Shown: in pieces, positions 1 to 658 of the stretch | How the letters are laid out: each line of letters starts with the position of its first letter | Position numbering within the stretch: position 1 is the first letter of the stretch | Source: a phage | Sequence record: AY167110.1 | Strand: one strand, 5' to 3' | Length of the DNA: 658 nucleotides | Notes under the pieces: generated by a model | What the model was told of the DNA's origin: nothing | Database searches by the model: none | The model's input: the letters and a program-made list of their open reading frames with translations, nothing else | Translations under genes and position numbers: made by a program

Positions 1-198
1 AAGGACTATGTTGATGGAGCAATAAATATTGTTACAACAAATGCAAACTCTAGAGTATTACGCTCTGGAGACACTATGACAGGAAATTTAACTGCGCCAA
101 ACCTTTTTTCACAGAATCCTGCATCTCAACCCTCGCATGTTCCGCGATTTGACCAAATCGTAATTAAGGATTCTGTTCAAGATTTCGGCTATTATTAA
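1..198 (+). CDS. 36: 3' end (5'-partial) of a T4 gp36-like long tail fibre protein (distal half-fibre hinge/connector subunit); C-terminal 65 aa, stop TAA at 196-198
   Basis: Frame 1 is open from base 1 to TAA 196-198 and translates to KDYVDGAINIVTTNANSRVLRSGDTMTGNLTAPNLFSQNPASQPSHVPRFDQIVIKDSVQDFGYY. It ends 8 nt before the gp37-like start codon, the conserved 36-37 gene order of T4-like phages. The C-terminal sequence resembles my recollection of the T4 gp36 C-terminus (not verifiable here). Absent from the ORF track, presumably because it is a short edge-truncated ORF. Confidence 0.75.
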   Translation, partial: KDYVDGAINIVTTNANSRVLRSGDTMTGNLTAPNLFSQNPASQPSHVPRFDQIVIKDSVQDFGYY

Positions 199-203
199 GA
201 GGA
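199..203 (+). promoter_or_regulatory. Shine-Dalgarno-like ribosome binding site (GAGGA) for the downstream gp37-like ORF, immediately after and partly overlapping the gene 36 stop (TAAGAGGA)
   Basis: Purine-rich GAGGA at 199-203, 3-4 nt upstream of ATG 207. The spacing is short but within the usable range and the motif sits directly on the upstream stop codon, suggesting translational coupling. Confidence 0.55.
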
Positions 204-206
204 CTT

Positions 207-644
207 ATGGCTACTTTAAAACAAATACATTTTAAAAGAAGCAAAACGGCAGGTCAACGTCCAGCTGCTTCAGTATTAGCCGAAGGTGAATTGGCTATAA
301 ACTTAAAAGATCGTGTACTTTTTACTAAAGATGATCAAGGAAATATTATTGACTTAGGTTTTGCTAAAGGCGGTAGTATTGACGGGAATGTTATTCATAA
401 AGGCAATTATAACCAAACTGGTGATTATACTTTAAACGGTACATTCACCCAGACTGGTAATTTTAATTTAACTGGTATTGCTCGAGTAACTCGCGATATT
501 ATTGCCGCTGGGCAGATTATGACTGAAGGCGGAGAACTTATTACAAAAAGTTCAGGAACGGCACACGTTCGTTTTCATGATTCCGCCGACCGTGAACGCG
601 GTATTATTTTTTCTCCTGCTAATGACGGGTTAACTACACAGTAG
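207..644 (+). CDS. 37: N-terminal region of a T4 gp37-like long tail fibre distal subunit; the ORF as read ends at an in-frame TAG after 145 codons, far shorter than full-length homologs
   Basis: ATG at 207 preceded by an SD. Translation begins MATLKQIHFKRSKTAGQRPAASVLAEGELAINLKDRVLFTKDDQGNIIDLGFAKGG, near-identical to the T-even gp37 N-terminus as I recall it. Downstream come Thr-Gly/Asn-Gly-rich motifs typical of fibre shafts. Position directly downstream of a gp36-like gene. Stop TAG at 642-644 verified by manual translation; the 3' boundary is uncertain biologically (see findings). Confidence 0.8.
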   Translation: MATLKQIHFKRSKTAGQRPAASVLAEGELAINLKDRVLFTKDDQGNIIDLGFAKGGSIDGNVIHKGNYNQTGDYTLNGTFTQTGNFNLTGIARVTRDIIAAGQIMTEGGELITKSSGTAHVRFHDSADRERGIIFSPANDGLTTQ

Positions 645-658
645 TTACATCAGAGTTC

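Follow-up and report, generated by a model that had tools for sequence, protein, structure and literature searches.

In the T-even phages, the N-terminus of gp37 is bound by the C-terminus of gp36 (PMC9603124, PMC5238451), and it is highly conserved among members of this group (PMC5238451, PMC9603124). Motif swapping in the T-even tail fibres, and their plasticity, have previously been described (PMC3157838). The distal tail-fibre locus of AR1, an E. coli O157 phage whose g36/g37 junction is well known, has also been published under accession AF208841, as entered in the reference list of PMC9603124 (Yu et al., J Bacteriol 2000; ref. 83). In the genomic records compared here, the gene block g34-g35-g36-g37-g38-t is annotated in AR1, T4, T2, RB14, PP01, ime09, RB69 and JS98. 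The AR1 genome (AP011113) was reportedly published in 2011. The g36/g37 junction represents the upstream edge of the host-range cassette in T4-like phages.

Identity and content of the window

The window, i.e., the whole 658-nt stretch of DNA that was analysed, contains two frames on the plus strand, the first of which is open at its 5' end, while the second starts at an ATG (position 207) and comprises 145 codons before a TAG (642-644). On the reverse strand of the window, the ORFs do not exceed 26 aa. A megablast search against 50,697 phage records returned 671 records matching the window, the best of which is the entry 'Bacteriophage AR1 distal tail fiber locus' (AF208841, nt 4-663, 99.4% identity), with the AR1 genome (98.9%) and Shigella phage SH7 (98.5%) next, and then JY01, Sf23, KIT03, RB51 and RB68. 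The AR1 records AF208841 and AP011113 assign the first frame to g36 (distal hinge connector) and the second to g37 (long tail fibre distal subunit), with g38 and t downstream. In the window, too, g37 lies directly 3' of g36, with the g36 stop codon, an 8-nt spacer and the g37 ATG in succession. The window is unambiguously identified as the gene 36/gene 37 junction of a Tequatrovirus, essentially that of phage AR1. As such, the junction is an ordinary and already published one, and the window adds no new biology. The features of the window are listed in Table 1.

Table 1. Features of the 658-nt window, with positions counted from its first nucleotide
Feature	Position	Strand	Remarks
3' end of gene 36	1-198	+	last 65 codons of gp36; stop TAA 196-198
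Intergenic spacer GAGGACTT, 8 nt	199-206	+	Shine-Dalgarno-like GAGG, 4 nt 5' of the g37 ATG
Gene 37 codons 1-62, conserved N-terminal domain	207-392	+	gp36-docking end, role from the literature
Window-specific A-to-T substitution, CAA to CAT (Q8H)	230	+	alignment with AR1 and other T-even phages
Breakpoint zone, limit of the similarity to other T-even g37 types	311-410		megablast and maximum chi-square
Gene 37 codons 63-145, proximal shaft of the AR1/RB69/PP01 type	393-641	+	tblastn, PHROG 1699
Frame-disrupted 3' end of the window	639-658	+	two 1-nt deletions relative to AR1; TAG 642-644

Searches for additional elements returned little. Rfam gave nothing at gathering score in the window, and no DNA tandem repeat was found in it. 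The T4 late-promoter motif TATAAATA, allowing at most one mismatch, was matched twice, which is not above chance, and three sigma-70 promoter-like sites were found in the window against 1.8 expected, which represents no enrichment. Two terminator-like hairpins, each with a 5-bp stem and a T-rich run, are located at positions 556-570 and 589-602, within the g37 coding region; both are weak, and their number (two found against a shuffle mean of 0.4 expected) is probably due to chance.

The two partners of the joint

On the gp36 side of the junction, 62 of the 65 residues encoded in the window are identical to those of T4, and in a profile search the 65-aa fragment matches PHROG 1425 (E = 1.4e-14), in agreement with membership of the gp36 family. 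The Pfam model Phage_T4_gp36 (PF03903) returns E = 0.039 and 14.4 bits for the same fragment, below its cut-off of 26, while full-length AR1 gp36 scores 99.6 bits. The spacer and ribosome binding site are identical to those of T4, the 14 nt TAAGAGGACTTATG being the same in both phages, and the bin at 181-210 is 100% conserved across all nine phages compared, with the exception of JS98 at 87%. Over the entire length of g36 (4042-4698 of the AR1 segment compared), the identity of AR1 to T4 is 95-100% in the first ~180 nt, 48-77% in the centre and 85-100% in the last ~180 nt, a distribution that makes gene 36 itself a mosaic relative to that of T4.

On the gp37 side, residues 1-62 are identical to T4 gp37 at 54 of 62 positions (87%), the differences being located at positions 8, 14, 17, 37, 38, 44, 57 and 58. 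This bears out a preliminary description of the sequence, in which the first ~60 codons were stated to be near-identical to T4 gp37. Three substitutions had been singled out in that description, namely H8, T14 and Q17, and T4 indeed possesses Q8, I14 and T17 at these positions; H8, however, is specific to the window and is not a feature of the lineage. The conserved N-terminal domain of ~60 residues that characterizes the T-even gp37 proteins, MATLKQIQFKRSK...GELAINLKD...FTKDD.GNIIDLG, is present, and the match to PHROG 1699 that is obtained with positions 1-145 (E = 2.8e-78) is also obtained with positions 1-62 alone (E = 2e-46). Furthermore, the N-terminal ~50-62 residues of gp37 head at least four other tail-fibre PHROGs (35830, 19966, 20242, 10316, 17885), which is consistent with this N-terminus acting as a portable attachment domain.

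Pfam and NCBIfam returned nothing useful for the 145-aa fragment, the N-terminus of gp37 not being represented by any curated model, and PDB sequence searches with the fragment, full AR1 gp37 and AR1 gp36 returned no structure that covers gp36 or the gp37 N-terminus. Based on the conservation described above and on the literature, we infer that the first ~56-62 residues of gp37 and the C-terminal ~60 residues of gp36 jointly form the protein joint of the distal half-fibre.

A segment of gp36, NIVTTNANSRVLRSGDTMTGNLTAPN (window 25-130), which includes SGDTMTGNL, also matches internal positions of PHROGs 32540, 16472 and 10316, and PHROG 10316 is at the same time a family whose own N-terminus matches that of gp37. 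These matches hint that gp37-like and gp36-like elements may, in some phages, be contained within a single long fibre protein.

A discrete identity step at the end of the N-terminal domain

Directly after the conserved domain, the identity to T4 falls sharply. In residues 63-145 of gp37, 24 of 83 positions are identical to T4 (29%), and this value is evenly low in both halves of the segment; neither uniform divergence nor uniform identity is thus observed along the 145 aa, the profile being that of a step from 87% to 29%. At the DNA level, a maximum chi-square scan against T4 places the change-point after nt 373, with 90.6% identity to its left and 53.0% to its right, a statistic that was reached in none of 500 permutations. 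The megablast alignment to T4 likewise stops at nt 373, and the identity in 30-nt bins is 80-100% up to nt 360, 73% at 361-390 and 37-70% thereafter. The identity step against T4 is discrete and far beyond chance. Its position also fits the preliminary description, in which the divergence was said to start at ~390: residue 62, which represents the edge at the protein level, ends at nt 392, and the DNA edge at nt 373 is located ~17 nt earlier.

The position of the step varies with the phage used for comparison. Megablast alignments end at nt 356 for T2 and K3, 361 for RB14 and PST, 373 for T4, 391 for ime09 and 410 for the Mosigvirus O157 typing phage 3 (O157tp3), with further ends at 379 and 397, while the maximum chi-square change-points are found at 311 (for RB14), 356, 373, 374 and 410, each with 0 of 500 permutations reaching the statistic. 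The breakpoint is thus a zone, nt 311-410, which varies with partner and method, and not a single site; the spread of ~100 nt is partner-dependent and is estimated from a handful of genomes. The upstream block is found in all 671 matching records, 199 of which are aligned over 80% or more of the window. At the same position as the breakpoint zone, T4, T2 and Mosigvirus carry related repeats that differ in phase and number.

The proximal shaft

The divergent part of the protein retains the fibre-like composition that had been attributed to it in advance, with T 14%, G 13%, I 10% and N 7% beyond residue 62, and positions 63-145 on their own match PHROG 1699 ('long tail fiber protein distal subunit') with E = 4e-25. 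The hexapeptide-like repeats NYNQTG DYTLNG TFTQTG NFNLTG (~nt 402-476, gp37 residues 66-90) follow directly after the conserved domain, and residues 57-90 show a weak likeness to a triple beta-helix segment in the gp5/OBP gp146 chimera (6p2a, E = 0.0029). A tblastn search with residues 63-145 returned 260 phage records, including those of RB69 (96.4%), PP01 (90.4%), Ac3 (89.2%) and JS98 (78%), and no T4 record was present among the 40 rows listed, which sampled the matches down to 35% identity.

A comparison of the full-length proteins nevertheless relates the AR1 shaft to that of T4: the two gp37 proteins are 35% identical over 750 aa (E = 7e-101), are colinear and share a Gp34_trimer-like segment, with recognisable islands such as AHVRFHDSADRERGIIF / AHLWFENADGTERGVIY within the alignment, and their BLASTP similarity stops at about residue 640-750. 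By this alignment, the AR1 shaft is a remote homologue of the T4 shaft, i.e., an allele that has diverged deeply and ends in a different tip, and not a foreign or unrelated sequence. The earlier statement that the protein diverges strongly from T4 is therefore retained as far as the 29% identity is concerned, but not in the sense of two unrelated shafts.

Relative to PP01, the window is 94% identical up to nt ~550 and 74% identical beyond it, where HDSADRERGIIFSPA is found versus FDNNSRERGIIYAPA (window 550-641). This step, which is milder than the first one, indicates a putative mosaicism on a finer scale inside the AR1-type shaft.

Probable exchange of the fibre cassette

In the genes on either side of the variable region, AR1 and T4 show backbone-level identity, with 90.7% in the 3' part of g34, 93.3% in g35 and 98.9% in t, versus 56% in g37; for g38, the value of ~58% is spurious and is derived from a partial alignment. 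Within the variable region, an island is 90% identical to T4, which is again at the level of the backbone; it starts ~190 nt before the end of g36, includes the spacer and extends ~150-185 nt into g37, and it is flanked on both sides by far more divergent DNA. The codon changes that separate the island from T4 comprise 14 synonymous versus 3 non-synonymous changes in the g36 tail, and 8 versus 6 in g37 codons 1-56. This predominance of synonymous changes is as would be found under purifying selection, and together with the above-mentioned colinearity of the two gp37 proteins it speaks for an alternative in which no module was exchanged and g37 diverged in place, its N-terminus being held by purifying selection for gp36 binding while the shaft drifted or diversified.

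Divergence in place cannot, however, explain why two phages of different genera should be most alike in their most variable gene, and it is precisely such a pattern that is displayed by RB69, a member of the genus Mosigvirus. Its g34 and g35 genes are 64-70% identical to those of AR1, whereas its g37 reaches 84.8%, and many of the 150-nt bins in this gene lie at 90-100% (g36-g37 corresponding to 3150-7126 of the RB69 segment compared). Against the window, the RB69 sequence exhibits a change-point after nt 96, within the 3' end of g36, with 68.8% identity to the left and 91.3% to the right from nt 97 onward (0 of 500 permutations), and this step mirrors the one seen with T4. The RB69 data point to a cross-genus transfer of the fibre gene.

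A second line of evidence against divergence in place is provided by the way in which the g36-centre and g37-shaft types are combined, which differs between O157tp3, T4 and T2. The g36 centre of O157tp3 is of the T4/ime09 type (83-91%), which is above the ~80% identity of its own backbone, while its g37 shaft is closest to that of T2 (69%, versus 58% to T4); AR1 and PP01 are alike in both segments, with 92% in the g36 centre and 77% in the g37 shaft. The incongruence across the island is read from pairwise identities, and by these the g36-centre and g37-shaft types appear to assort independently. Taken together, the RB69 mosaic and the independent assortment mean that crossovers in or beside the island are needed, and we infer that they took place within the island. 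An account in which g37 merely diverged in place is, consequently, regarded as improbable. The same two observations, namely the reciprocal mosaic of RB69 and the independent assortment on the two sides of the junction, lend support to the proposal, already put forward on first inspection of the sequence, that the conserved joint permits exchange of the distal fibre.

The preferred explanation is that of a cassette exchange, in which co-constraint on both joint partners would keep an island of ~350 nt similar enough for homologous recombination; since both partners are conserved, the island could act as a homology arm. The island and the conserved gene t would then bracket g37-g38 as a host-range cassette that can be exchanged and that determines receptor specificity, and the AR1 cassette would be the RB69/PP01/T2-like version and not the T4 version. 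We place high confidence in cassette exchange as the explanation of the AR1 junction. Part of the contrast between the AR1 and T4 shafts could nonetheless result from relaxed or diversifying selection and not from exchange, because the AR1 shaft is still homologous to that of T4 (35% over 750 aa). In practical terms, the end of homology at nt ~356-410 (g37 codons ~50-68) guides the placement of homology arms for distal-fibre swaps, although this is already standard knowledge.

The 3' end of the window and its differences from AR1

In a three-way alignment with both AR1 records, 654 of the 658 positions of the window match AF208841, leaving four differences. Two of these are substitutions, A230T, which results in Q8H in gp37, and T629G, which is silent, and the other two are 1-nt deletions within the last 20 nt, namely CAA to CA at ~640 and TTAAC to TTAC at ~647. 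The TAG at 642-644 results from the first deletion; the second, located 7 nt later, leaves the frame unrestored, with the result that the AR1 sequence NDGLTTQ-VV-N-IRV is spread over three frames of the window. The best 40 of the 671 matching records each align over 2 nt more than the window does (660 versus 658, or 654 versus 652). Because the deletions are absent from both AR1 records and from these best 40 relatives, the end of the 145-aa ORF is most likely a sequencing artefact at the end of a read. In the preliminary description the gene was given as 207-641; AR1 gp37, by comparison, is 1103 aa in length. Full-length fibre proteins of this type comprise ~1000-1350 aa, and the window, the last 20 nt of which are frame-disrupted, stops at about codon 150.

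The possibility that the TAG is genuine was also considered, in which case the sequence would derive from a g37 frameshift or nonsense mutant, or from a natural variant, in which gp37 would be made as an N-terminal fragment of 145 aa. The in-frame TAG is present in the window as given, and gene 37 nonsense mutants are classical laboratory tools, which was counted in favour of such a reading; two 1-nt deletions inside the last 20 nt are, however, the usual signature of read-end errors, and neither of the AR1 records nor any of the best 40 relatives carries them. A genuine stop is accordingly rated as very improbable.

As regards Q8H, residue Q8 is present in all nine relatives that were read or aligned, including both AR1 records, T4, T2, RB14, PP01, ime09 and O157tp3. 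In an exact 27-mer scan of IMG/VR, the CAT (H8) version returned 0 matches, compared with nine contigs for the CAA (Q8) version. The deleted 3'-end 25-mer was likewise absent from IMG/VR, but so was the intact AR1 27-mer, which renders this control uninformative. It is considered equally remote that the TAG and Q8H are both real, so that the window would stem from an AR1 variant that is either a fibre-defective mutant or the source of a decoy or regulatory gp36-docking fragment. The premature stop is the only peculiarity of the window and is most likely a matter of data quality.

The two AR1 records also differ from each other at three positions within window nt 1-20, where the window sides with the older AF208841, and gp37 residue 151, immediately beyond the window, is R in one record and Q in the other.

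Comparison with known distal-fibre systems

The distal-fibre module downstream of the junction lies beyond the window and was assessed on the AR1 record. AR1 gp37 carries a C-terminal Peptidase_S74 chaperone domain (Pfam, E = 1.1e-12), and its last ~190 residues match the gp37 tip of Salmonella phage S16 (PDB 6f45, E = 4.4e-44). The AR1 gp38 protein (259 aa) matches the Pfam families GP38 (E = 4.9e-73) and Gp38_N (E = 2.2e-21), and the AR1 record thereby displays all three features of a T2/S16-type distal module, i.e., Peptidase_S74, an S16-like tip and a GP38/Gp38_N-type gp38. T4 gp37 (1026 aa), by contrast, is characterized by a Collar domain and Phage_fiber repeats, and the 183-aa gp38 of T4 is unrelated to that of AR1 and has no match in Pfam; neither Collar nor Phage_fiber is found in AR1 gp37, and AR1 gp38 is of the adhesin type. 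Judged by these domain matches, AR1 carries a distal module of the T2/S16 type, in which gp37 has a cleavable C-terminal chaperone and the adhesin is a separate gp38. The expectation that the distal fibre module of this phage differs from that of T4 is thus borne out by Peptidase_S74 and the GP38 adhesin in AR1 as opposed to Collar/Phage_fiber in T4.

Among the named relatives, AR1 (AF208841; AP011113/NC_027983) is the closest to the window, which it resembles in gene order, spacer and 144 of 145 gp37 residues, and from which it differs in the absence of A230T (Q8H), T629G and the two 3' deletions. Phages with gp37 of the RB69/PP01/wV7/Ac3/SH7 type are 89-100% identical to the window in residues 63-145 and possess a separate gp38 adhesin. 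RB69 differs in its Mosigvirus backbone and in a g36 that is divergent upstream of window nt ~96, and PP01 differs in its local divergence after nt ~550 (74% identity).

T4 (gp37 NP_049863; genome NC_000866) resembles the window in the N-terminal 62 residues of gp37 (87%), in the position of g37 after g36 and in the spacer and ribosome binding site, whereas its shaft, colinear as far as about residue 750, is only distantly homologous, with an identity of 29-35%. The two phages also differ in the way the fibre ends, since in T4 the adhesin is the Collar/His-box needle at the C-terminus of gp37 itself and gp38 serves as a chaperone, while AR1 combines Peptidase_S74 with a gp38 adhesin.

The gp37 of T2 shares the conserved N-terminus, with a megablast alignment that extends to nt 356 at 91%, and that of K3, the record of which begins at the g37 ATG, is aligned to the same nt 356 at 89%. 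The proximal shaft of T2 starts differently, with LSISAGGNISGNITQTGDY, and T2 gp37 (1341 aa) shows an overall identity of 33%, yet both T2 and K3 possess a separate gp38 adhesin, in the same kind of architecture as AR1.
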